A stretch of 64,000 nt of DNA from Pseudomonadota bacterium (GCA_022361155.1 JAKSBK010000527.1:6381-70380), one strand, 5' to 3'. Counted from the first letter of the stretch, positions 2,911-57,900 are shown. Notes: generated from the letters alone by a model not told the origin. Numbers and translations: made by a program.

Positions 2911-4440
2911 GTGCTACAGACAGCGTGCGCATTGGGGCTCGCGGGTGCCGCGACCACCTCTCCCATAGAGCCATCTGGATTGCACGACGCGCTCATCGAA
3001 CTGCGGAAGGAGCTCCTGCGGCTGACCGGGGCGCGGGCGCAGGCACGCCTGTGGCGCTGGCGTGGCCAACCGGATGCCGCGTGTCAGGAGCTCGGAGAGC
3101 GACTTCTAGCGTGGCTGGCCTCCGATGCGACATGGCAGAGCATCCGCGGCGCGGAAGCGCTGGCCGGCCGAGATAGCGCCGACGCACTACGGCTGCACTT
3201 GGCCTCCTCCCGTGCAAAGCTGCCTCTTGCTGGTGCGGCTGCGGCGCTGGCGTCATGGCAGTCGGGAGCGGTTGCGCCGGAGGGGAGCGTGGTTCCCGCC
3301 ACTCGCGCCATCGATCGCCTCGCCACATGCGAGTCTGCAAGGCAACGCGCGGCATTTGCAGCGGCGTTGGAACCGAGCCTGGCGGGTGTCGCAGACCGCT
3401 GGCTTGACGCGTGCATCAGCTCGGAGCTGGCGTGGAGCCAGCGCCTGCCGGGCGGACACTCCCGAAAGCTGCGTGAGCTCGCCGAGCGCGTGCTCGAGAA
3501 CACGCGACCGGAGCACGAGGAGCACCTGGCACGCCTGAAACATGCGGCGGCGCAACGCGGGGAGCTCGCGGAAGCAGGGGACCCAGCGGCACCGACGGCC
3601 TGGCAGGACCTGGTGTTCATGCTGCGCGCGCCTCACCTCGACGAGATCGTGCCGAACAAGCAGCGCTGGCGCCGGGTCGCACAGCCCTTGCTCGGTTTGG
3701 GTTTCGGATCGGAAGTGGACGCCCACCTGCGCGCCGAGCCGTCGCACGGGGGCCTCTGTCCGGTGGTCGCCCTGGCCGGCCAGGACGCTCCGCGCGAGGT
3801 TCGCGTCGCCCCGGGGGCCGTGGAGTGCGGGGCGCTCAGCGAGATGCTCGCGTGCGAAGGGCTCGCCCGGGCCCTGGGGCTGGCCCTGGTGAGTGTAGCC
3901 TTGCCGCCCGAGCTGAGGTGTCCCGCGCAGGGCTCGGTGGCGCGAGCGTTCGGCTCGCTGCTCGGCCAGCTCCACGCGGATGCGGGCTATCAGGCGAGGC
4001 GTGTCGGGCTGCACCGGCGGGCAGCAGACGAGCTCAGCCTGCACACCGGGGTGCTGTGTCTTGCGCGTATTCGGATGGCAGCGGCTAGGGTCCTGGCAAC
4101 AGCCGGGCCCGAACGCTCGCAGAGCGCGCGCCTCGAGCGAGGCACGGGCCTCGTGTCCACGGCGATGGGCTCGCGCCTGCCGCCTTCGGTGGTCGCCATG
4201 CTGCTAGGCACCCAGCAGCGTGCCGCTTTGGAGCTGCGCGTCCAGCTTGCCGGGCTGGCTCTTCACACCGGGCTTCGTGAGCGGCTGGACGAAGACTGGT
4301 ACCGCAATCCGCGCGCGCAAGAACCGCTGCGGGCGGCCTGTCAGCGGGGCGCGACGCTGTGCGCGGAGCGCTGGTGCAGCGAGTGGAACGTGACGCTTGA
4401 GGCGGGAATCGGCCGCGTGCGCGAGCTGCTGAAAGGCTAG
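2911..4440 (+). CDS. Hypothetical protein (Ala/Leu/Arg-rich, helical; no family recognised)
   Basis: 509-codon ORF divergent from proC with G/C-dominated third codon positions by eye. No motif recognised; HEEH at residues ~205 is not a zincin HExxH. Confidence 0.5.
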   Translation: MLQTACALGLAGAATTSPIEPSGLHDALIELRKELLRLTGARAQARLWRWRGQPDAACQELGERLLAWLASDATWQSIRGAEALAGRDSADALRLHLASSRAKLPLAGAAAALASWQSGAVAPEGSVVPATRAIDRLATCESARQRAAFAAALEPSLAGVADRWLDACISSELAWSQRLPGGHSRKLRELAERVLENTRPEHEEHLARLKHAAAQRGELAEAGDPAAPTAWQDLVFMLRAPHLDEIVPNKQRWRRVAQPLLGLGFGSEVDAHLRAEPSHGGLCPVVALAGQDAPREVRVAPGAVECGALSEMLACEGLARALGLALVSVALPPELRCPAQGSVARAFGSLLGQLHADAGYQARRVGLHRRAADELSLHTGVLCLARIRMAAARVLATAGPERSQSARLERGTGLVSTAMGSRLPPSVVAMLLGTQQRAALELRVQLAGLALHTGLRERLDEDWYRNPRAQEPLRAACQRGATLCAERWCSEWNVTLEAGIGRVRELLKG

Positions 4441-11538: not shown

Positions 11539-11700
11539 TTAGGGCCCGCGAAAGAACAACTTACGCGGTTGGGTGAGGACCGGGCGCCGCTGGCAAGGCG
11601 CAACGACCAGGCATATTGGGAATATTTCGAGGAGGAGCAACACAGCCAGCGGTGGTCGGGAGCCGGCGAAACGCATGAGTTGTTCTTTCGCGGGCCCTTA
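11539..11700. mobile_element. Intact MITE-like element, copy A. 156 bp (11542-11697) with 20-bp perfect terminal inverted repeats, flanked by TTA direct repeats.
   Basis: Left gggcccgcgaaagaacaact (11542-), right agttgttctttcgcgggccc (-11697). TTA at 11539-11541 and 11698-11700. About 85-90 percent identical by eye over most of its length to the reverse complement of copy B at 44388-44542. Confidence 0.65.
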
Positions 11701-12589: not shown

Positions 12590-14821
12590 ATGGCTGAAAC
12601 ATCCAACTGGAGCCTGCAGTTCGGGATACCGGGGGGTCTGCCGGCCGGCCTTGCGATGGCCGTCGTGATAGGGGCGGTGGTAGTGCTGGGTTGGATCGAG
12701 CTGACCCAGGTCGTGCCCAGCGCTCGCCGCCGGCTGCTGCGCGGGATGCGCGTGCTCAGCGGCTCGGTGGCGCTGTTGCTGGCGCTGCAACCCAGGCTTG
12801 TCGAAGAACGAGTTCATCGTCGCGCTGGCTCGCTGGCCGTGCTCGCGGACACGTCCCGGAGCATGATGCTGCGGCATGGTGATCGAACTCGCGCAGAGGC
12901 CGCCCGTGCGCTGCTGCAGCGTTGGCTCGACGCCGGCATCGCCCGTGAAGTGCGTGTGTTTCAGATGGGCGACAAGGCCGAGGAGGTGCGTCATGCGGAG
13001 CTCGCCAAGAGCTATCCCACGACGCGGGACGACACCCGAATCGCCGCGGCCGTCGAAGCGGTGTTGCGCGCCGATCCGAACAACGGCCTGGGTGCCATCG
13101 TGCTTGTCTCGGACGGTCGCAATCTCGAGAAGCAACCGGCCGTGGAGCGGCTGAGGGACCTTGGCCTGCGCGTGCACACGGTCGCGCTCGGCGCCTCCAC
13201 CGAGCTGCGCGACGACGCAATTACCCAGGTGCTGGCGGACCGAGTTGCCTTTTTGAGGCAGCCGGCCCGAGTCGACGTGAACGTGCGCTCGGTTGGAGGC
13301 AAGCAGCGGCAGCTATCGCTTCAGCTGCGCCGCAACGGCGAGTTGATCCGGACGGCAGCCATCGATCTGTCGCCCGGCGGCGAGGGTCACACCCAGCTGG
13401 TGTTCGCGCCAAGCACGCTGCGGCGTGCCGTGTACGAGTTGAGCATACCGGTTGCCTCCGACGATGCCGTTCCGCAAAACAACAAGCGGGCGTTTCTATT
13501 GCATGTGAAACGCAACCGACTGCGCGCCCTGCTGATTTGCGGCGCGCCAAGCTGGGATGCGCGCTTCATGCGAGCCTTCCTCAAGGCGGATCCTTCGAAC
13601 GATCTCATTACGTTCTTCATTCTGCGCACGGCCAACGACCTGATCATGGCCGCTCCAGGCGAGCTGTCGTTGATCCGCTTCCCGGCGGATGAGCTGTTCA
13701 GCCAACACCTTGCGAGCTTCGATGTAGTGCTCTTCGCGGACTTCGAATACGGACCATACCGGATGGCGCGCTATCTGATGCCTCTCAGGGACTACGTGCT
13801 GGCCGGAGGCGCGCTGGCCATGCTGGGAGGCCGGCGCAGCTTCGTGGAAGGTGGCTACCGAGATACACCGCTCGCCGAAGTGCTGCCTGTGCGACTGGAT
13901 ACTGCCAACACGGCGCCCCTCATCGCACCCTTCCGCCCGCGCCCCGCGCAGGGAGCGGAGAACCATCCCCTGGTGGCCCTGGCGTCCGATCGCGTCATGA
14001 GTCAACGCCTGTGGGCCGGCTTGGCGCCGCTCCAAGGCGCGAATCGCGTGGGCGACGTGGCCGACGGCGCTCTGGCGCTGCTGGTGCATCCCCGGGAGCG
14101 CACGCGCAGCGGCCGGGCCTTTCCAGTCCTCTCCGTGCGCAAGGTCGGATCGGGTCGGACCCTGGCGCTCGCAACCGACACCTCGTGGCGCTGGGGCTTC
14201 GCAACGGCAGGCCACCAGGGTGATGCATCGGCCTATGGCCGTTTCTGGGATCGCGCGCTGCGCTGGCTGGTTGCCGACCCTGCCCTAGAACCGTCGCGCC
14301 TGCGGACACACCGAGACAGCTACGTGCCCTCGGCTAGGCTGCGCGTTGACCTCACGCTGCGCGACGAGCTTCACCGGCCCGAAGCCGCCGAGGTCGTGGT
14401 CGAGCTGCTGCGTCCAGGTTCCGCACCGCTTGCCCGCCACCGGTTGCAGACCGACGGGCAGGGCAAGGGACGACTGGAGATCGACGCACCGGCAACCCCC
14501 GGGGGCTACCGATTGCGCGTCCCCTCCGCGCACGCCGATCGAGCGCGCGCCGACGTCGATTTTGTGGTCGAGAGCGGGGGTAGGGAGCTCGCCGATCCAC
14601 GTGCCGATCCCCGCCTGCTGCGGGACATCGCGCGGGCAACGGGCGGTGCTTCCTATGCCGATCCAGATGCTGCTCCCAATCTCGATGGATTCGAGGCGAC
14701 CCGCACACGTGCGCTCAGAACGCTGGCCTGGGCCCCGTTCGGGAGCCTGTGGTTCTTCGCGATTTGTGTCGTGGTGTTTTGCGGAGAGTGGGCTATGCGC
14801 CGCCGTTTCGGACGCCCCTAG
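12590..14821 (+). CDS. Membrane protein with an N-terminal double-TM anchor, a VWA-like domain and a class-I glutamine-amidotransferase-like (ThuA/DUF1355-like) domain, plus a C-terminal TM
   Basis: Two N-terminal TMs, LAVLADTSRSM (VWA MIDAS-like DxSxS), LRALLICGAPSWDARF...DVVLFADFEY...AGGALAMLGG, C-terminal WFFAICVVVFCGEW. Confidence 0.65.
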   Translation: MAETSNWSLQFGIPGGLPAGLAMAVVIGAVVVLGWIELTQVVPSARRRLLRGMRVLSGSVALLLALQPRLVEERVHRRAGSLAVLADTSRSMMLRHGDRTRAEAARALLQRWLDAGIAREVRVFQMGDKAEEVRHAELAKSYPTTRDDTRIAAAVEAVLRADPNNGLGAIVLVSDGRNLEKQPAVERLRDLGLRVHTVALGASTELRDDAITQVLADRVAFLRQPARVDVNVRSVGGKQRQLSLQLRRNGELIRTAAIDLSPGGEGHTQLVFAPSTLRRAVYELSIPVASDDAVPQNNKRAFLLHVKRNRLRALLICGAPSWDARFMRAFLKADPSNDLITFFILRTANDLIMAAPGELSLIRFPADELFSQHLASFDVVLFADFEYGPYRMARYLMPLRDYVLAGGALAMLGGRRSFVEGGYRDTPLAEVLPVRLDTANTAPLIAPFRPRPAQGAENHPLVALASDRVMSQRLWAGLAPLQGANRVGDVADGALALLVHPRERTRSGRAFPVLSVRKVGSGRTLALATDTSWRWGFATAGHQGDASAYGRFWDRALRWLVADPALEPSRLRTHRDSYVPSARLRVDLTLRDELHRPEAAEVVVELLRPGSAPLARHRLQTDGQGKGRLEIDAPATPGGYRLRVPSAHADRARADVDFVVESGGRELADPRADPRLLRDIARATGGASYADPDAAPNLDGFEATRTRALRTLAWAPFGSLWFFAICVVVFCGEWAMRRRFGRP

Positions 14822-14986
14822 TTCCTGTCCAGCATGGCGCCAGAGCGGCTTTCGTCCTCGTCCCTGCCCTGCGAAATAGCGCTGCTATTCCTCGGTCCGG
14901 GCCTCCGGGCGCGCTCGCTCCGGCATCCATCCTGGACAGGAACGGCTAATCCAGCATGGCGCCAGAGCGGCTTTCGTCCTCGTCCC
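14821..14986. repeat. 37-bp perfect direct repeat (14828-14864 and 14950-14986) interlocked with a 17-bp inverted repeat (14821-14837 / 14927-14943, 1 mismatch)
   Basis: tccagcatggcgccagagcggctttcgtcctcgtccc occurs twice. gttcctgtccagcatgg pairs with ccatcctggacaggaac. Located between the VWA-gene stop (14819-14821) and the sulfatase start. Confidence 0.9.
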
Positions 14987-15041
14987 GGCGTGCGGTGCCG
15001 TCTTTCGGCCCCAAGCGGCTGCGATGCTACGATCGCCTGTC

Positions 15042-18087: not shown

Positions 18088-18638
18088 AACGTTAGCTTAG
18101 CCTAACGAGACCGTTCCGGCGACGGGTGGGCTGCCATGGGTCTGGCCCGGTACGCAAGATCCGGCGAAGCCGTGCAACCCGCATCTCACACTCGATCGTT
18201 GCGATCAGCTTCGCGAGCACGTAAGATTAAAGGTTTTCTTGGCGAGTGCGCCTGCAGGAGTCGCCCGAGGAGTATCAAGGTACTTCGCAAGTCAGCGACG
18301 AGGACGTAAACCGCCCAGAACGGCGCCTGGGAAGCCGCCGCGGAAGCGAAGATCCCGGTGAACGGTTACGCTGGCTCGGTGCCGCGTTGCCACGAGTGCG
18401 GGTTGCCAGTGGAGGTTTCTTGCTCGAATCAGTGCGGGTTTTCGTGGCGCTGGGCGCGGTTTCGTGTTGCGAGCGCCGTTTTTGTGTCGACAAGACGTCT
18501 CGAAGTCGGCTACGCATGCTTGCATCGCGTTGCGGTCCCGCAGCGTATCCACGACATTTGTGTCGCGCCGCGCGCGTTTGTTGCACACCCATGTCTGTAC
18601 CGTTTGTTACACAACGTGATTTGTCGATTGGGCCGGCT

Positions 18639-18667
18639 TTGCAGCAAGCGCAAAAGAGCGGTATGCT
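18639..18667 (+). promoter_or_regulatory. Sigma70-like promoter candidate for the Cys-rich lipoprotein gene (TTGCAG-N17-TATGCT)
   Basis: Hexamers read directly. About 40 nt upstream of ATG 18706, which is preceded by GGGGTGA. Confidence 0.3.
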
Positions 18668-18705
18668 CCGTGTTTCTTATCCCGTTTTCCCCTGGGGTGA
18701 ACATC

Positions 18706-20694
18706 ATGCGTAATGGATTCAGGATCGTTCTCTTGTGTATGTGCGGGCTGACTGCAGCTTGCAGCAGCTCGAATGCACGCCCTGGCCCAGCTGGCTTCGG
18801 CGGCGGTGTTGCCACTGGCTTCGGCGGCGCGGTTCGCCCTGGCTTCGGCGGCGCGGTTCGCCCTGGCTTCGGCGGCGGTGTTGCCACTGGCTTCGGCGGC
18901 ACGGTTGGCTTCGGCGGCGGTGTTGGCCCCGGCTTCGGCGGCGGGCCCGGCGGCTTCGCCGGCAGACCGGCACAGGTTGGACCGGCGCCTGTGACCTGCC
19001 CGCCTGGACTTTCCCATTGTTACAACCAGTGCGTGCCGACGTTGACCGCTCAGTTCAACTGCGGAGCTTGCGGTGTCGTCTGCAAACCTGGGTCTTCCTG
19101 CATAATGGGCAGCTGCTTATGCCCGCCCCCGTTCGTCGACTGCGGAAGCGGATGCTCCGACCAGCTGAGCGATGCATTCAACTGTGGCGCCTGCGGGATC
19201 GAATGCGGCACCGGCGGAATCTGCGTCGCGGGCGTGTGCCAATGCCCGCCCGGAACCATTCAATGCCAGATAGGTGAGGGCGGCCTGGGCGGCACGGGCT
19301 GCGTCCTTGGTGACATGCAGAGCGACGTGAACAACTGCGGCCAGTGTGGCAACCAATGTGCGGTAGGCGCGGCCTGCATTGGGGGCAACTGCCAGTGCCC
19401 CGACGGTATGGTCGACTGCGATCGGCTCTGTGTGGACACGAGCACGAACCCGGCGCACTGCGGTGGCTGCACCGATCCTACTGCCCAGCAGACCAGGGCC
19501 TGCGCTCCGGGTGCCCTGTGTCTTAATGGCCAGTGCGAGTGCGGTCCCAATTTGACCCTGTGCGGCAACGCCTGTGTCGACATCAACATCGACCCGAGCG
19601 ACTGCGGCGGCTGCGGCAACTTCTGCGAAGGGCAATCGGTTTGCCTGAATGGGCTGTGCCAGTGCCCGCCTGGAACCGTGGAGTGCGGCGGCGGCGGCGG
19701 CATCGGCTTCCCGGGTGGCGGTGAAGGCGGAAATTGCCTGCTCGGCAGCCTGCAGACCGACCCCAACAACTGCGGCGAGTGCGGCATCCGCTGCCCGCTC
19801 GGAGGCCTGTGCCTGAACGGGCTGTGCCAGTGCCCGCCCGGCACCCAGGTATGCGCAGCCAATCCGGGGCGTAACATCCCCGGCGAGTGCGCGCTCACCG
19901 TCGCCGATCCGGAGCACTGCGGGCCGGACTGCAAGCCGTGTGTGCCCGGCGCCACGTGTGCGAACGGCATATGCCTGTGTCCGCCTGGCCTCACCGAGTG
20001 CCATCCGGACGGCTGCGTGGACCTGCTCACGAGCTCCTTGGACTGCGGTCAGTGCGGCGTCCGCTGCTCCGGCGGCGCGCAATGCATGGGCGGCCAATGC
20101 CTGTGCCCACCTGGTCGCGAGCCATGCGGCACCCCTGGACCCGGCGAGCTGTCCGGTTGCAGGCTGCCGGGCCAGGACGCATTCCAGAACGACTCCCTGA
20201 ACTGCGGGGGCTGCGGTCGAACGTGTGCGGTGGGCGCCATCTGCCGGATGGGCGAGTGCCTGTGCCCGCCAGGAGAGGTCGATTGTGGCGGTCACTGCAG
20301 CCTGCCAGGCCGCTGCCCGATCTACGAGCAGTGCGACCGGAATTTCGATCCAGGCGGCATAGGAGGCATAGGGGTGGATCCGGTAGGCGGGTCGGGGAAC
20401 AACGACCCGTGTGTTCGTCCAGGGGGAGAAGGCCAGCAGAGCGGCCTGTTGAACTGCGGGCCAACCGAGGCCTGCTGCGTGGCGCGGCGTAACGGCGGTG
20501 GCACCTGGTGCGGCCAGTTCTGCGACCGAAACCGCGACTGCCCATTTCCTCCTCCTCCTTCCAATGCAATGCCCATGTGTGCTCAGAATGAGAATCACTG
20601 CTTCCTCGATTGCTCACTCGGGCAGCTGTGTCCGCTCGGCATGACTTGCGTCGCGAGCGACATCTTTGGGCAGCGGATCTGCGCCTGGAACTAA
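18706..20694 (+). CDS. Lipoprotein with an N-terminal GFGG-repeat region and about ten cysteine-rich CPPG / NCGxCG modules
   Basis: ATG 18706 (MRNGFRIVLLCMCGLTAAC lipobox). GFGGGVAT/GFGGAVRP octapeptide repeats. Repeated pattern C-x-C-P-P-G ... [ND]-C-G-x-C-G-x-x-C-x-x-G-x-x-C-x-x-G-x-C. The ORF-track start at 18358 adds non-repetitive upstream sequence with no signal peptide. Confidence 0.75.
   Translation: MRNGFRIVLLCMCGLTAACSSSNARPGPAGFGGGVATGFGGAVRPGFGGAVRPGFGGGVATGFGGTVGFGGGVGPGFGGGPGGFAGRPAQVGPAPVTCPPGLSHCYNQCVPTLTAQFNCGACGVVCKPGSSCIMGSCLCPPPFVDCGSGCSDQLSDAFNCGACGIECGTGGICVAGVCQCPPGTIQCQIGEGGLGGTGCVLGDMQSDVNNCGQCGNQCAVGAACIGGNCQCPDGMVDCDRLCVDTSTNPAHCGGCTDPTAQQTRACAPGALCLNGQCECGPNLTLCGNACVDINIDPSDCGGCGNFCEGQSVCLNGLCQCPPGTVECGGGGGIGFPGGGEGGNCLLGSLQTDPNNCGECGIRCPLGGLCLNGLCQCPPGTQVCAANPGRNIPGECALTVADPEHCGPDCKPCVPGATCANGICLCPPGLTECHPDGCVDLLTSSLDCGQCGVRCSGGAQCMGGQCLCPPGREPCGTPGPGELSGCRLPGQDAFQNDSLNCGGCGRTCAVGAICRMGECLCPPGEVDCGGHCSLPGRCPIYEQCDRNFDPGGIGGIGVDPVGGSGNNDPCVRPGGEGQQSGLLNCGPTEACCVARRNGGGTWCGQFCDRNRDCPFPPPPSNAMPMCAQNENHCFLDCSLGQLCPLGMTCVASDIFGQRICAWN
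18793..18960 (+). repeat. In-frame 24-bp tandem repeats (ggcttcggcggcg...) in the order A-B-B-A followed by degenerate units
   Basis: Units ggcttcggcggcggtgttgccact (A) and ggcttcggcggcgcggttcgccct (B), read directly. Confidence 0.9.
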
Positions 20695-20830
20695 GCGGAA
20701 CCGCAACTCAGTAGCTGTAACTGAAGAACGTCCGGGGGGCTCGTCGCGGCCAGCTGGTACCTCGTTGCCGAGGATGCCGGCTGGCCGGTCGTGATCTCGG
20801 GCGCCGCGCGGGGACATACCTGGCATACCC

Positions 20831-20886
20831 GAGAGGGGTGTCCCTGCGCGGCCGGTCTCGACCAACTATTCTGTCACGGGCCCTTA
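20831..20886. repeat. Degenerate right-end relic of the MITE-like family; its terminal TTA is the stop codon of the minus-strand gene 20884..21411
   Basis: gagaggggtg...ctattctgtcacgggccctta aligns without gaps over 56 nt to copy A (gccagcggtg...gttgttctttcgcgggccctta) and better to the relic at 32937-32992 (ctgtcacggg vs ctgtgacggg). Confidence 0.45.
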
Positions 20887-21411
20887 CCGGGCCGGGCCGA
20901 TCTCGGTCAGACTGGGCTCTGCCAGCAAGGTCGCGCCGCTTGCTTGCTGCACCTCACGCGCGCTGATCCCGGGAGCGAGCTCTCGGACTACCAGGCCGTG
21001 TTCGGTCACGTCGATGACCGCGAGGGCGCTAATGATGCGATCGGCGTGCGGGCCTGTTGATCCGCGCCGGGCGGCTGGTTCGGCCGGCACGATGCCCAGC
21101 CGGCGAGTCCTTGACGGGCAGGTCAAAAGTACGACCAGTCTCCCGGCGCAATAACCCGCTGGTAGCACGTCGCTACCGTTGGCGTGGCCGTTAGCGCTTG
21201 AGGGCGCTACGAGCTGGCCACGGCTGTCGATCTGGTCGGCCGTGATCAAGGCTAGATCCACAGGCGACCCGTTGCTGCCGCGTTCGGTAACGTGAACACC
21301 CGGGGGTAGGAAACGGTGAATGTCCCTGGACACGCCTGCTCCCAGCAGGACGCGCTCACCCACCCGCGCCTCGGCCGAGGCCCTCATCAGCAGTTGTTGC
21401 GAGCTTAACAA
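20884..21411 (-). CDS. Short, divergent CoA-transferase subunit-B-like protein
   Basis: N-terminal QLLMRASAEARVGERVLLGAGV and C-terminal IISALAVIDVTEHGLVVRELAPGISAREVQQASGATL resemble 3-oxoacid/glutaconate CoA-transferase beta subunits. It is only 175 aa and the SENG catalytic-Glu motif reads GSNG. The start lies 3 nt after the carA stop. Confidence 0.45.
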   Translation of the reverse strand: MLSSQQLLMRASAEARVGERVLLGAGVSRDIHRFLPPGVHVTERGSNGSPVDLALITADQIDSRGQLVAPSSANGHANGSDVLPAGYCAGRLVVLLTCPSRTRRLGIVPAEPAARRGSTGPHADRIISALAVIDVTEHGLVVRELAPGISAREVQQASGATLLAEPSLTEIGPAR

Positions 21412-21413
21412 CG

Positions 21414-22574
21414 TCAGGTCTCGTAGCTGCGTTGCTGTGCGTCCCAGTGTCTCGTGTCGCCCTCGATCTGCTGCACAAAGCGACGAAACAGGTAGCGGGC
21501 GTCGTGGGGTCCCGCGCTGGCTTCGGGATGGTACTGAACGCCGAAGGCTCCGGATTCCACATGCCGGATTCCCTCGCAGGTGCCATCGTTCAGGTGCCGG
21601 TGGGTAACCTCGCAGCGACCTCTGAGCGATTCCATGTCAACGCAGAAGCCATGGTTCTGGCTCGTGATCTCTACCCGGCCGGTCCCCAGGTCCTTGACTG
21701 GCTGGTTCAAGCCATGATGGCCGAACTTCAGCTTGTAACTGGAGGCTCCCAGCGCCAGGCACATGATCTGATGGCCAAGACAGATGCCAAACACCGGCCA
21801 CCGCCCCAGCAGCTCGCGCACGGTGTCCGTCCCCCCGGAAACAGCGGCCGGATCGCCGGGACCGTTCGACAGGAAGATCGCATCCGGCCCCAGGTTCGCA
21901 ATGGCCTCGACTCCCGTGGCGGCCGGCACGACCGTGACCCTGCAGCCGGCATCGACGAGGCAGCGCAGGATGTTGTGCTTGACGCCAAAGTCCATGGCGA
22001 CCACGTGCCAGCGAGCCCCGGGTGTCGTGGCGAGGGAAGTGCTCGCCTCCCGGGTCCACGCGAGGCTGCCGCGATCCCACTCGTAGACCACGTTCGTGGT
22101 GACCGCTTGGGTGAGGTCGCGCCCCTCCATGGGCGGCGCCGCCCGGGCAAGATCTACCAGCTCGTCGCTTGGATCAGTGCCGAGCGCGGCCATCTGAGCT
22201 CCCCGATCGCGGATGTGCCGCGTGAGACTACGCGTGTCCACGTCACGCAGCGCCACGATGCGATGCCGCTTGAGGTAGCAGTCGAGCGTCTCGCGCGCAC
22301 GCCAGCTGCTCGGCTCGCTGGCGAGCTCGTGTACAACGAAACCGGAAAGCGCAGGTGCCGCCGCCTCTTCGTCGTCGAGGTTTACGCCCGTGTTGCCGAT
22401 TTGGGGCGCGGTCATTACCACGATTTGGCCGCAGTAGGATGGATCGGTGACGACCTCCTGATAGCCGGTCATGCCGGTGGTGAACACCGCCTCGCCCGTG
22501 GCAGTGCCCGAGGCACCCGCGGCCGTGCCGGTGAAGATCGTACCGTCCGCCAATGCGAGTCGCGCTGCAGTCAT
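21414..22574 (-). CDS. carA: Carbamoyl-phosphate synthase small (glutamine amidotransferase) subunit
   Basis: N-terminal CPSase_sm domain ([21 protein letters not shown]), GATase GICLGHQ ... HGxN ... QYHPE. Confidence 0.95.
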
Positions 22575-22645
22575 GCTGGGGATATTTCGAGGAGGAGCAA
22601 CACAGCCAGCGGCGTTTGGAGCCTGCGAGGTGGGCAGGCGCCCTA
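22575..22645. repeat. Internally deleted relic of the MITE-like family filling the whole pyrC-carA intergenic gap and retaining the 36-nt core
   Basis: 22577-22612 tggggatatttcgaggaggagcaacacagccagcgg differs from the copy A core at 1 of 36 positions. The tail ggagcctgcga...gcgcccta ends on the pyrC stop (cta 22643-22645). Confidence 0.55.
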
Positions 22646-23938
22646 GCTAGACGGGATCGCGAGGCGGTGCACTACATGGCCACCGACAAGGGTCAGGACA
22701 ACAGCACCCTGCAGTTGCTGGCCCAGAAAAGGGGTGTTCGACGAGCGGGAGCGTAGCGCGGCTGCCTCGAGAGTCCAGCGGTGCTCCGGGTCGATTACGG
22801 CGATATCGGCCACGCCCCCCACGCGCAGGCTGCCACCTGGAAGCCGACCGATTCGGGCCGGTGCAACGGAGAGCGCCTCGATCAGCCTGCGTTCTGAAAG
22901 GTGCCCTTGCCGTACCAGGTCGAGCAACACGGCCAGCGCCGGCTCGAGCCCGAGGATGCCAAAAGAGGCCGCCTCGAACTCGCAGTCCTTTTCGAGGCAG
23001 CTGTGCGGGGCGTGGTCCGTTGCGATGCAGTCGATCGTGCCGTCCCTGAGTGCCTCCCGCAGCGCGTCGCGGTCTGCTTCCGAGCGCAGGGGCGGGTTTA
23101 CCTTGCAGGCAGTGTCGTAGCCCACGACCGCATCCTCGCTCAGCAATAGATGGTGGGGCGTGACCTCTGCACTCACGTGCAGGCCCCGGGCCTTCGCCTC
23201 GCGCAGCAGCCGGACGGTACCCAACGAGCTAGCGTGTGCAACGTGGTAGCGGGCCCCCGTCATCTCGGCGAGAATCAGGTCGCGTGCCACGATGATGTCC
23301 TCCGCCTCGCGAGGCCAGCCCCGCATCCCCAGTTGCGTCGAGCGCCGGCCTTCGTGCATCTGGGCGCCTCGAGTCAGGCCGTGATCCTCGCAGTGCTGCG
23401 ACAGGAGCAGGTCGAAGGTCTTGGCGTATTCGAGCGCCCGGCGCATGACGCCTGAGTCCATGACGCATACCCCGTCGTCGCTCACCCCGATCGCCCCCGC
23501 ATCCTTCAAGTCAGCCATCTCGGTGAGCTCGACTCCCTTCGATCCCACCGTGATGGCACCGAACGGATGCAGTCGGGGTCCACTGCAACTAGAGGCCTTC
23601 GACACCATCAACTCGGTGACGGCCCGTGTGTCGTTGACAGGCTTGGTGTTTGGCATGGCACATACGGCTGTGAATCCGCCTGCCGCCGACGCCGCCAGCC
23701 CGGACTCGATGTCCTCCTTGTACTCGTGGCCGGGCTCACGCAGATGCACGTGCAGGTCGACGAAGCCAGGTACGACCCAGCAGCCCGCCGCCTCGATGAC
23801 CTGAACCCCGTGCCCGGTCAGCCCAGCTGCCGCGTTAGGCCCGACGCGGACAATCCGGGCTGCATCGACAACCACGTCCGCTGGCTCGTCCCGATCTTGG
23901 GAAGGATCGATGACCCGGCCGCCGCGCAGTACCAGCAT
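22643..23938 (-). CDS. pyrC: Dihydroorotase (class I, multifunctional-type)
   Basis: [31 protein letters not shown] metal-ligand blocks. Confidence 0.9.
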
Positions 23939-32847: not shown

Positions 32848-32936
32848 TGTTTCGCTATAACACACAGGTGAGCCGATGCCGGATGCCGCCCCCCTCGAAG
32901 GGACCGCACCTGCGGTGAACGAAGGCGTCGCGTCTT

Positions 32937-32992
32937 GCCAGCGGTGCCCGGCTCCCGCCGATCCGGAAAAGTTATTCTGTGACGGGGCCTTA
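32937..32992. repeat. Degenerate right-end relic of the MITE-like family in the divergent regulator/operon intergenic region
   Basis: gccagcggtg cccggctccc gccgatccgg aaaagttatt ctgtgacggg gcctta aligns without gaps to the last 56 nt of copy A (first 10 nt identical; tail 19 of 26). Confidence 0.45.
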
Positions 32993-33018: not shown

Positions 33019-33049
33019 TTGACCCTGTCGGTCCGTGCCTGGTATAAAT
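33019..33049 (+). promoter_or_regulatory. Near-consensus sigma70-type promoter with extended -10 (TTGACC-N18-TGgTATAAAT) in an AT-rich island about 60 nt upstream of 33115
   Basis: Hexamers read directly. The same bases also fit a weak sigma54 spacing (TGGTAT-N-AAGC, GG-N10-GC at 33041-33054). Confidence 0.45.
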
Positions 33050-42757: not shown

Positions 42758-42941
42758 GAAAATGTCGGGCGATCTCGGGATTCGTAGGCACGACCGAGAG
42801 GGTTGGGGTGCGACGCCTGCGTGAAGATTGTGGACCCGCTTTTTCAGGACGTGTACTGTTGGTCGAGCCCGGTGCGACTCGCGTTCGGCCTCGGCGGCGC
42901 CGTGGCGTCCTCAGCTGGGGGCCGATACGGGGAGCGACCCG

Positions 42942-44387
42942 ATGAACAGCAACCAGACGCAGCAGACACGGCGTGGCCGTCCGGGTGCCATGACCATGGC
43001 CATGCAGGCGGTTCAGCTTCGCCCTTCGGGCCCGAAGGTGCTGCGCATCGGCCTGATTCAAGGCGGGCGGATCGTCGAGGAGCGCATCGTCCGCAAACGC
43101 GAGACGGTCCTGGTGGGCACCTCGGAGAAGAACCACTTCGTGGTCCAGGCCAAGGGGCTGCCGTCGCGTTTCGAGCTGTTTCAGCTGGTCGGACAGGACT
43201 ACATCCTGAACTTCCGTGACGACATGAAGGGGCGGGTTGGGTTGCCGGGGGGGGTGCAAGACCTGCAGCAGCTGCGCTCCAGCGGCTCGGCCCGCAACGC
43301 GGGCTCCCATTGGCAGGTCAAGCTGTCCGATAACTCGCGCGGCAAGGTCGTTATCGGCAACGTGACGCTGCTGTTCCAGTTTGTCGTGCCGCCACCGGTC
43401 CAGCCCAGACCGCAGCTGCCTGCGGCCGCACGTGCGGGGTTCGTGCGCGCCCTGGATTGGCTCTTCACAGCGCACGTTACGTTCGCGTTCATGGCGATGT
43501 TTTCCCTGATCGTCTACATGGAGAACGCAGACTGGCCGATCGAACAAGGCATCGCCGCGGTTCCGGACGCGGTCGCGAGAATGATCTTCGAGGAACCGCC
43601 ACCGCCCCCGGAGGAAGAACCCCTGGAGGAAGAACCTACGGAGGCAGAAGAAGCCACGGAAGAGGCCAAGCCGGAGCCCAAGGAGACGCCCAAGAAGGAC
43701 GAGCCCGCACCCAAGGAAACCAAGGAAGAGGTGGCCGAGAAGACGGCCCGGATCGCCGAGGAGGCCGCGCAGGCGGCTGAAGCCCTGATCGTCGGAGCCT
43801 TGAGCGCCGAGGCTGGCGGCGTTCTGGCCGATGTGCTGGCAGGTGGAGCGGTCACGGGCATGGCTGAGGACGTCCTCGCGCAAGCGGCGGGTGTCGGCGT
43901 GGCGCAGTCCTCGGCGGGTGGCGCGCTTCGTACCCGGACCGGCGGGGGCCGGGGCAGCGGCGTGGGCGGGCTGGGTGCACTTGCACGTCGTGGCGGGGGC
44001 AAGGCCGTCGCCGAGGGCAAGGCGGTGGCAGAGCGCAGGATCCGTGGCCGGGCCAAGCTCAGCACCGGCGGCGGAGACATCGGGGGCACCGGAGATTTCG
44101 ACGACAAAGTGGTGATCCGCACCATCAAGACGCGGCTGCGGGCGATCCAGGCCTGCTACGAGCGAGAGCTGCGGCGCAATCCTACACTGGCGGGCAAAGT
44201 CGTAGTCCAGTTCACGATCGAGGAGCGGGGCAACGTGACCGGGTCGAAGGCAACCGAGAACACCACCGGATCCGATGCCGTGGCTTCGTGCGTGGTCAAC
44301 ACAATAAGGCGCTTTCGCTTCAACCCAGGGCCAGAGGGTGGAAGCGTGACCTATTCGTATCCCTTCGTGTTCGCCCCCCAGAACTAA
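42942..44387 (+). CDS. GltG(PglI)/NfsG-like bitopic protein: FHA-like N-domain, TM, acidic Pro-rich linker, AgmX/PglI-type (TonB-C-like) C-terminal domain
   Basis: GGGGAG 8 nt before ATG 42942. LRIGLIQGGRIVEERIVRKRETVLVGTSEKNHFVV. TM WLFTAHVTFAFMAMFSLIVYM. EEPPPPPEEEPLEEEPTEAEEATEEAKPEPKETPKKDEPAPKE. C-terminal RAIQACYERELRRNPTLAGKVVVQFTIEERGNV...SCVVNTIRRFRFNPGPEGGSVTYSYPFVF. Confidence 0.65.
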   Translation: MNSNQTQQTRRGRPGAMTMAMQAVQLRPSGPKVLRIGLIQGGRIVEERIVRKRETVLVGTSEKNHFVVQAKGLPSRFELFQLVGQDYILNFRDDMKGRVGLPGGVQDLQQLRSSGSARNAGSHWQVKLSDNSRGKVVIGNVTLLFQFVVPPPVQPRPQLPAAARAGFVRALDWLFTAHVTFAFMAMFSLIVYMENADWPIEQGIAAVPDAVARMIFEEPPPPPEEEPLEEEPTEAEEATEEAKPEPKETPKKDEPAPKETKEEVAEKTARIAEEAAQAAEALIVGALSAEAGGVLADVLAGGAVTGMAEDVLAQAAGVGVAQSSAGGALRTRTGGGRGSGVGGLGALARRGGGKAVAEGKAVAERRIRGRAKLSTGGGDIGGTGDFDDKVVIRTIKTRLRAIQACYERELRRNPTLAGKVVVQFTIEERGNVTGSKATENTTGSDAVASCVVNTIRRFRFNPGPEGGSVTYSYPFVFAPQN

Positions 44388-44545
44388 GGGCCCGCGGAAG
44401 AATAACTCATCCATTTCGCCGGTTCTGACCACCGCTGGCTATGCTGCTCCTGCTCGAAGTATCCCCAATACTCCTCGTCGTTACGCCTCGCCAGCGGCGC
44501 CCAGTCCTCACCGAAACACACGAGTTATTCTTCCGCGGGCCCTAA
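44385..44545. mobile_element. Intact MITE-like element, copy B. 155 bp (44388-44542) with 21-bp perfect terminal inverted repeats, flanked by TAA direct repeats. The left TAA is the stop codon of 42942..44387.
   Basis: Left gggcccgcggaagaataactc, right gagttattcttccgcgggccc. TAA at 44385-44387 and 44543-44545. The interior is the reverse complement of copy A, with substitutions and one 1-nt indel. Confidence 0.65.
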
Positions 44546-57100: not shown

Positions 57101-57228
57101 GGGTTGCGCTTAGGGTCCGTCCAAGAATAGCTGGTCGAGACCGGCCGCGCAGCGTGGATGCGATTCGCCGGCGCGCCCGGAGGAAGAACCGCAGCAATGG
57201 CAGCGCTATTGCGAGGATTTTTGCGAGG

Positions 57229-57900
57229 ATGAAAGCCGCGAGCGCGCCGCCCTGCACGACCGCAGCCGATCGAGTTGTTCTGGGACGGGCCCTTGGACCT
57301 CGGCTTCGCCTCGGAAAAGAGCTCGCAACGGCCTGCTTCTTGGCCCCGATCATAGCCGTGGCGGGCTGCAGGGGCTGGACCGCGGATCAGGCGCCCTTGG
57401 TCCCGATCCGCAACATGCATGATCAACAACGCTACGACGCGCAGCAGGCCAGCGAGTTCTTCGGCGACGGTCGCACCATGAGACCGGAGGTCGCTCACAC
57501 GGTGCCACGCGAAGCGGAGCCAAACGAAGCCGTACGCACGGGGCTTTCGGCTCGCGACGGCGGCTACGCCCTCGCGATACCGGATGTCGTGGTGGAGCGG
57601 GCAGGGGGCCTGGAAGACCTGATGCGCCGGGGAGGCGATCGCTTCAACATCTACTGCGGGCCGTGTCACGATGGCTCGGGCAGCGGAAAGGGAACGGTCG
57701 TGCAGCGCAACGCAGGCATGCCTCCCCCGCCTACGTTTCACAATGATCGCATCCGCCACATGCCGGACGGTCAGCTCTTCAGCACCATCACCAACGGGAT
57801 CCGAAACATGCCCGCCTATGGAACACAGATTCCGGTCGACGACCGATGGGCCATCGTCTCCTATGTCCGGGTCCTGCAGGTCAGCCAGGCGGCCAGGTAA
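57229..57900 (+). CDS. actE: Alternative Complex III subunit ActE (monohaem cytochrome c lipoprotein). Start uncertain: ATG 57229, or GTG 57097 overlapping the actD stop.
   Basis: Lipobox IAVAGC; single CGPCH; C-terminal NMPAYG...DRWAIVSYVRVLQ. Confidence 0.75.
   Translation: MKAASAPPCTTAADRVVLGRALGPRLRLGKELATACFLAPIIAVAGCRGWTADQAPLVPIRNMHDQQRYDAQQASEFFGDGRTMRPEVAHTVPREAEPNEAVRTGLSARDGGYALAIPDVVVERAGGLEDLMRRGGDRFNIYCGPCHDGSGSGKGTVVQRNAGMPPPPTFHNDRIRHMPDGQLFSTITNGIRNMPAYGTQIPVDDRWAIVSYVRVLQVSQAAR

Follow-up and report, generated by a model that had tools for sequence, protein, structure and literature searches.

Two repeats of the window, by which we mean the whole 64-kb stretch of DNA that was analysed, are very likely MITEs moved in trans by a DDE transposase of family ISAzo13. 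This degree of confidence applies to the MITE and ISAzo13 assignment of both repeats, named copies A and B, and not to the role of their conserved core, which is considered separately. The element is a MITE in the ordinary sense and its kind is already known: window copies are 155 to 180 bp long, have no transposase gene, carry terminal inverted repeats (TIRs) and a flanking duplication (TTA/TTG in the case of copy C) and are dispersed, dozens of further family copies being present in other genomes. What appears to be undescribed is the ISAzo13 parentage of MITEs, the occurrence of a single homologous MITE lineage in six or more phyla, and the possession of a conserved, co-varying and strand-asymmetric core unrelated to the IS. 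Family ISAzo13 is among the least studied IS families, and ISAzo13-type MITEs are described neither in the papers found to mention ISAzo13 nor in the MITE reviews consulted.

If confirmed, these data would define a TIR and a target (CTTAG, of which TTA is duplicated) for the ISAzo13/Zator branch of the IS630-Tc1-mariner group. They would likewise point out a widespread and maskable repeat at which metagenome assemblies break in Myxococcota, Acidobacteriota, Bacteroidota and Planctomycetota, and a natural bacterial MITE whose interior, beyond its ends, is under long-term selection, making the needs of a MITE beyond its TIRs amenable to testing. Examples of insertions regenerating stop codons, and possibly of palindrome-centred rearrangement, would be a further outcome.

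Copies A and B

Copy A is an intact class-1 MITE of 156 bp (11542-11697, + strand). As read in the sequence, the right end, taken as its reverse complement, reproduces the left end GGGCCCGCGAAAGAACAACT at 20/20 positions and then at 24/26, giving perfect TIRs of 20 bp at 11542-11561 and 11678-11697. These TIRs and the flanking TTA triplets had been recognised in an initial annotation of this DNA and hold to the base: TTA was read at 11539-11541, where the family-wide tally of flanks also bears on it, and at 11698-11700, as the left and right copies of a 3-bp target duplication. The class-1 HMM matched the element over its full length (E 7.5e-28), and its conserved 75-nt hairpin core (11582-11656, + strand), containing motifs GCAAGGCGC and GAGCAACAC, scored 73.1 bits (E 7e-18) with the covariance model R1.

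Copy B, already reported in the initial annotation as a second full-length copy in opposite orientation, is an intact class-1 MITE of 155 bp (44388-44542, - strand) whose core lies at 44428-44502 (R1 59.8 bits; HMM E 3e-26). Its TIRs are perfect over 21 bp (21/21) and TAA was read on both sides, at 44385-44387, where it doubles as the stop codon of ORF 42828..44387 (TonB_C domain), and at 44543-44545. Copies A and B align over their full length with the single indel that had been announced (blastn E 2e-42), their identity of 83.3% over 156 columns being slightly below the 85-90% estimated by eye. Neither copy encodes a protein.

The bare 9-mer GGGCCCGCG is not enriched in the window (64.5% GC), with 6 occurrences observed and 4.0 expected. 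Unlike this 9-mer, the whole element is far beyond chance. Copy A folds as a single long hairpin of -89 kcal/mol (z = -8.8), a stability attained by 0/200 shuffled sequences.

Copy A is located, as originally stated, between divergent genes, encoding ApbE (PF02424) and a DUF4159 protein (PF13709), respectively. The next homologues of this DUF4159 protein belong to Myxococcota (Polyangiales, Sandaracinus, Myxococcales) and share no more than 68% identity with it. Two independent ENA metagenome contigs with the same DUF4159 gene both stop inside copy A, which is the usual behaviour of assemblers at repeats and provides the sole, indirect hint at the very high genomic copy number supposed in the initial annotation; both carry copy A, and neither gives an empty site. 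The comparison with empty sites suggested at the outset succeeded for the family (L052 empty, L080 filled; see below) but found no such site for A or B in relatives, the nearest flanking-gene homologue being 68% identical with no usable synteny. The predicted empty sites are ...AGACGGCCC-TTA-GCCTTTGGAC... for copy A and ...CCCAGAAC-TAA-GCTCAAGTCG... for copy B.

Other family members in the window

An inventory of the window by blastn, repeat finding, covariance model R1 and two profile HMMs gave three intact copies (A, B and C), distributed in two classes, as well as three or four fragments, so that the initial count of five family members in 64 kb was roughly right. The statement that no transposase is present in the window was borne out by a tblastn search with an ISAzo13 transposase, which returned none.

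Copy C is an intact class-2 MITE of 180 bp (57113-57292, + strand; class-2 HMM E 1.9e-26) flanked by TTA (57110-57112) and TTG (57293-57295). It has a TIR of the A/B type, but its interior is different, though related, and it lies 12 bp downstream of the stop codon of an ActD gene. Copy D, a decayed class-2 element (approximately 20695-20883, + strand, the left boundary being uncertain), contains an inverted repeat, I4, that is 85% identical to the left end of C, and is well preserved only in its right 43 nt (20841-20883). The TTA located 3' of copy D (20884-20886) is the stop codon (TAA) of the minus-strand ORF 20884..21411. In the same region, ORF 18358..20694 displays a 24-nt tandem repeat (18767-18962) followed by at least six cysteine-rich repeats of the CxxGxCxCPPG type (19222-20287); on the basis of these repeats its product may be a myxobacterial secreted repeat protein, with which they are compatible.

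Fragment E is a class-1 element reduced to its left half (model positions 10-66; 32924-32989, - strand; nhmmer E 7e-5), with TTA next to it at 32990-32992. Just past this fragment, at 33019-33048, a strong sigma-70-like promoter (TTGACC-18-TATAAA) is followed by an AT-rich leader. Fragment F corresponds to a class-1 right half with a decayed TIR (model positions 70-123; 22569-22648, + strand; R1 19.3 bits, E 0.007; nhmmer E 5e-5) and abuts and overlaps the start codon of carA (CAT at 22572-22574). The gene carA is the minus-strand ORF 21414..22574, with CPSase_sm_chain and GATase domains, and the overlap of its start with the inner end of F (22569-22577) implies that a MITE remnant provides the sequence immediately upstream of carA. 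Fragments F and E represent complementary halves of one element, on + and - strands, respectively, with both outer ends pointing rightward. An inversion of about 10.3 kb (about 22.57-32.92 kb) with one breakpoint in the apical loop of the element would produce this geometry.

Fragment G is a weak class-2 core remnant whose membership is tentative (14849-14954, - strand; nhmmer E 4.5e-4). It lies within a 123-bp element (region 14821-14989) that is bounded by the inverted repeat GTTCCTGTCCAG/CTGGACAGGAAC and has a class-2-like centre, GAAATAGCGCTGCTATTCCTCGG; this element is followed by a 40-nt direct repeat of its own left part, 98% identical (14828-14867 and 14950-14989). The divergence of 17% between A and B, together with the decay of several window copies (D to G), suggests that family activity in the window is old, and the family may now be inactive here.

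Target site duplications and insertion sites

Among 74 short elements whose flanks were tabulated, 29 had TAA/TAA and 28 had TTA/TTA, i.e. 57 perfect duplications, most of the others being one base off. The target consensus was C-TTA-G, with C at position -1 in 39/57 and G at position +1 in 36/57. Flanks alone cannot prove duplication, because every copy carries the same triplet, and the triplets could be the fixed termini of an immobile, REP-like palindromic repeat; the whole element also forms a hairpin, as do REP or BIME repeats. Such a repeat is nevertheless extremely improbable here, since a site with a single TTA has a filled counterpart with two (see below), since the TIRs match those of transposase-encoding ISs and since TTA and TAA flanks are equally frequent whichever way the interior points, which is what insertion in both directions would give.

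Target duplication itself was observed in Terriglobia. An empty site (L052) reads ...GGAGATTGTCGGAGACCT-TTA-GCCGGAAACAAG... without interruption (GACCT-TTA-GCCGG), whereas the filled site (L080), with the same flanks, has a 178-bp class-2 element between two TTAs. This pair shows directly that one TTA becomes two, in a paralogous-type comparison between different Terriglobia species at a site lying inside another repeat. The latter is a separate Terriglobia palindromic repeat (GCAGAGATC...GATCTCTGC), the loop of which contains the site (L080, 5230-5279 and 5458-5520; L052, 7018-7097). Transposition of the MITEs would be pictured as follows: a transposase would bind the TIRs, excise the element and re-insert it at TTA through a 3-bp staggered cut.

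All core-bearing copies were intergenic. Around 16 of 60 copies, including B and D, sit flush against the end of an ORF, whose TAA stop codon is one of the two duplicated triplets; insertions of this kind regenerate the stop codon. The abundance of such landings may be attributed to the fact that TAA is a stop codon and that TTA/TAA is rare in GC-rich coding DNA. Since many copies would land on stop codons and restore them, their insertion may be nearly harmless. Elsewhere, a class-1 MITE (L027, 3451-3607) was found 8 bp downstream of a tRNA gene (3371-3443).

Relationship with family ISAzo13

A scan of genomes (one per species) with the degenerate end pattern TWAGGGNCCGNNNAAGAAYANCT yielded at least 120 stretches, none of those listed being from the genome of the window. 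The matches listed were from Acidobacteriota (Terriglobia, Vicinamibacterales, Marinacidobacterales, Bryobacterales), Bacteroidota (Lewinellaceae, Phaeodactylibacter, Saprospiraceae), Myxococcota, Planctomycetota, Gemmatimonadota, Lentisphaerae, Chloroflexota and others, and TIR pairs among them were mostly 150-220 bp apart, a few being separated by 1.3-1.9 kb. The search for autonomous elements with the same termini, also advocated in the initial annotation, was successful. An element of 1286 bp (L114, 2-1287) with a TTA flank has the ends GGGCCCGyTAAAGAATAACTGA, identical to the TIR of copy A at 17-18 of 20 positions, and its ORFs match PF07592 DDE_Tnp_ISAZ013 (E 1.9e-142) and the NCBIfam model NF033519 ISAzo13 (E 1e-160). 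In tblastn searches, an ISAzo13 transposase was found adjoining the TIR in L023 (1913 bp, TTA/TTA), L009 (1416 bp), L025, L058, L063 and L104. All full-length elements with this TIR that were inspected (7/7) thus encode a DDE transposase of family ISAzo13, and no IS5-type gene was seen between such TIRs among them.

Comparison with described members of the family (PF07592/NF033519; ISNpu10, ISNsp4, ISStsp1) revealed the same TIR starting with GGG, an inner motif resembling AAGAATAACTT and TTA/TAA flanking triplets. The cyanobacterial ISNpu10 and ISNsp4 have AAAAATAACTTGAAC in their TIRs, the inner TIR motif AAAAATAACTT being common to them and the MITEs. Annotated plasmid copies of ISAzo13 have GGG/GGA ends with TTA/TTA or TAA/TAA flanks (L147, L143); a Streptomyces ISStsp1-like plasmid copy has GGGATTGCAG ends and TTA/TTA flanks, and a Mesorhizobium plasmid copy GGACACG ends and TAA/TAA flanks. 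Considering flanks of full-length ISs, TTA/TTA was found for L023 and L147 and TAA/TAA for L143, while L009 and L146 lack a direct repeat, being flanked by one TAA and one TTA.

The initial annotation had considered the element as non-autonomous and mobilised by IS5/PIF-Harbinger-like transposases, of which TIRs together with a TAA/TTA duplication were held to be the hallmark. Its description as a multi-copy, non-autonomous TIR element with a 3-bp TTA/TAA duplication stands; the family assignment does not, given the match of its TIR with those of ISAzo13. A Tourist-like MITE depending on an IS5 or PIF-Harbinger-type transposase would account for the GGG start of the TIRs and for the 3-bp TTA/TAA duplication in a CTWAG-like target, a combination that resembles IS5-group and Harbinger targets. 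It is nonetheless most improbable in view of the transposases actually found within the same TIRs, all of them of family ISAzo13. Nor is the duplication a hallmark: the eukaryotic Zator elements have their bacterial relative in family ISAzo13 (TP36), within the IS630-Tc1-mariner group (PMC5718144, PMC7386202), and Zator-1 produces 3-bp TAA or TTA duplications (PMC12905397), so that TAA/TTA duplications, made by ISAzo13 and Zator elements too, do not discriminate between ISAzo13 and IS5/Harbinger. Mobilisation by an ISAzo13 transposase is retained for copies A and B.

Two further scans were performed. Metagenome data searched with the exact 20-nt TIR of copy A gave 19 stretches, most of them Kofleriaceae-like copies of 159 bp that share both the TIR and the core of A; these 19 stretches contained no transposase and nothing from the organism of the window. 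The viral scan gave one match, on a contig with 44% GC and without a partner TIR, which was rejected as probably due to chance.

Structure and conservation of the interior

The ends of L009, L023 and L114 have only about 22-30 terminal bp in common with the MITEs, and the R1 core had no match in the IS-bearing loci (L009, L023, L025, L058, L063, L104, L114) or in L143-L147. Whereas in the ISAzo13 ISs sampled the TIR is followed almost at once by the gene, the MITEs of the window have, within 155-180 bp, an unrelated interior and no transposase. As judged by these alignments, the MITE interior is separate and not the remnant of an IS deletion, the element sharing only its TIR with the IS.

The MITE interior is alignable across phyla. 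From the outside in, it consists of a variable lower stem, a stem of 7-10 bp rich in compensatory changes, an apical domain whose near-invariant motifs are GCAAGGCGCGAGGAG (5' side) and CGACGAGCAACGCAG (3' side), and a small, variable tip hairpin. In an alignment of 26 core sequences, 17 of 21 pairs were altered on both sides. The covariation score was 0.535, compared with 0.164 in shuffled alignments (0/500 reaching the observed value), and fell to at most 0.10 when, as a control, the 3' partner was slid by 1-3 columns. With R1, 57 core sites below E 1e-6 were detected in the window and the fetched loci; in the window, the core was found in A and B, and weakly in F. These sites were from Acidobacteriota, Bacteroidota, Myxococcota, Planctomycetota and Ca. 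Eisenbacteria and, more weakly, Lentisphaerae, and on this evidence of sequence the 75-nt core is conserved in at least six phyla.

Among 52 distinct cores, positions C13, A15, G16, G17, C18, C20, A58, A59, C60, G61 and G64 were at least 94% conserved. Two GA dinucleotides per side (21-22 with 54-55; 24-25 with 51-52) face each other as 5'-GA/3'-AG, and the Watson-Crick pairs flanking these sites co-vary, copy A having C-G where most copies have G-C. The near-invariant, purine-rich internal loops of the core have the appearance of tandem G·A pairs. Purines make up 61% of the top strand of the core; compared with the bottom strand, it gives the more stable fold in 27 of 44 copies, with a difference of only 2 kcal/mol. 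Neither Rfam nor the searchable literature contained an equivalent of the core or element, literature searches with sequence strings giving only irrelevant primers. Using Rfam 15, no family besides one tRNA reached the gathering score in the window and seven representative loci, and copy A gave only a chance-level match (E = 5) at a permissive threshold.

Class-2 elements have lengths of 178-200 bp and the centre CCGGAGGAATAGC...GCTATTTCGAGGAT; in addition to copy C, they include copies from Terriglobia, Gemmatimonadota, Krumholzibacteriia and Cloacimonadota. The class-2 HMM matched A and B over their full length and in one orientation only (E 4e-9), indicating that the two classes are homologous. 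Out of 71 short elements bounded by TIRs, 45 belonged to class 1 and 16 to class 2, the other 10 being short forms or other elements.

Variants of the interior were also encountered. TIRs identical to those of copy A over 20 nt enclose a GGAAGCCAGGAAACGAGG hairpin in L136 and L138 (FSWK01 contigs), and a 178-bp element with class-2-like interior in L142 (6318-6495), showing that the same ends carry several cargoes. Marinacidobacterales copies (L070, L102, L006, L067, L039) are class-1 elements of 220 bp in which about 63 nt are inserted into the apical hairpin, extending the core match from 75 to 138 nt, and copies from Lewinellaceae (184-306 bp) contain small hairpin insertions of the CCTGCCTGC type. 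In Terriglobia OZ253536.1 (L116, 709-2901), about 2 kb of inserted DNA interrupts a class-2 MITE at its apical loop; the insertion has its own inverted repeats (CCAGCAGCCTGTGGCGG...) and no similarity with ISAzo13. A 180-bp element (L026, 6341-6520) whose core match is 76% GC was located on a contig of a Klebsiella pneumoniae MAG, this contig being probably mis-binned.

Possible role of the core

Substitution patterns were compared between conserved and other columns within Bacteroidota and Acidobacteriota. Private (singleton) mutations amounted to 3.9% and 2.3%, respectively, in Bacteroidota and to 4.9% and 4.1% in Acidobacteriota, neither difference being significant with these small counts (11-13 conserved columns per group). 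Variation shared between copies was depleted at columns conserved across phyla (5.8% vs 15.2%, p = 7e-5). This combination is what would be seen if inserted copies decayed neutrally and only the lineages that keep the core went on multiplying. Selection thus seems to act on the ability to propagate rather than on each inserted copy. From these substitution patterns, which rest on small counts, we would give only slightly less than an even chance to a core acting in cis for the propagation of its own element. It might, for example, attract the transposase or some host factor, or fold into a hairpin when the DNA is single-stranded. A core serving the host at each insertion site appears less likely than a role in propagation of the element.

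One such service would be that of a structured RNA beneficial to the host, acting as a cis-regulator or as a small RNA, that is merely dispersed by the MITE ends and whose selection keeps each copy. A stable hairpin, strong covariation, unpaired motifs conserved in six phyla and the asymmetry of the strands, with a purine-rich top strand, are all features that such an RNA would display. Several observations do not fit with it, however, and make it unlikely. The elements are oriented at random with respect to neighbouring genes (divergent in 18 cases, convergent in 13, tandem-sense in 11 and tandem-antisense in 11) and no promoter-like site was found inside A or B, which together argue against an RNA dependent on host transcription. 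Moreover, private mutations are not depleted at conserved positions, no Rfam family matches, and the top strand is the better folded one in just the 27 copies mentioned above.

With regard to propagation of the element, our tentative proposal, to which we assign rather less than an even chance, is that the core is a functional and strand-specific structure, i.e. a hairpin with purine-rich loops and tandem G·A pairs, carried by the MITE lineage as its propagation module. Acting as a transposition enhancer, or as an element recognised in single-stranded form during ISAzo13-type transposition, it would have allowed the lineage to remain recognisable in six or more phyla, the stems and the base composition having meanwhile drifted with each host.

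Other candidate features were considered by eye and discarded. A sigma-54 promoter was rejected because the spacing from GG to GC is 9 and not 11, an integron attC site because GTTATTC does not fit GTTRRRY, and a coding peptide because the Lewinellaceae copies contain stops. An IHF site was likewise dropped, and an inner transposase-binding repeat (GCAAG) was too weak to be asserted.

Comparison with other mobile elements and repeats

The nearest analogy to the MITEs of the window is provided by the plant Stowaway MITEs, which are cross-mobilised by Mariner-like transposases and share only TIR and target with the autonomous element. Their interiors have a separate origin, as in the elements described here, and can influence the efficiency of transposition. 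Stowaway elements are eukaryotic and produce a TA duplication, and we know of no conservation of a structured interior on a cross-kingdom scale among them. With regard to the ISAzo13 relatives, Zator-1 of amphioxus (eukaryotic superfamily Zator) resembles the MITEs, by its published description, in the association of TIRs with 3-bp TAA/TTA duplications (PMC12905397); it differs by its eukaryotic host and by its TIRs of 33 bp.

Among prokaryotic repeats, REP and BIME sequences are imperfect palindromes of 20-40 nt without TIRs or duplication, whereas the elements of the window have 155-180 bp, IS-type TIRs and a demonstrated duplication. Correia elements (Neisseria), ERIC, RUP, Nezha and Chunjie are closer to the present family: they measure 100-240 bp, possess TIRs and direct repeats, are predicted to form stable hairpins and occupy intergenic or gene-end positions (PMC3184786). 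These repeats are, however, confined to a genus or family, unlike the family of the window, which covers at least six phyla with a conserved and co-varying core.
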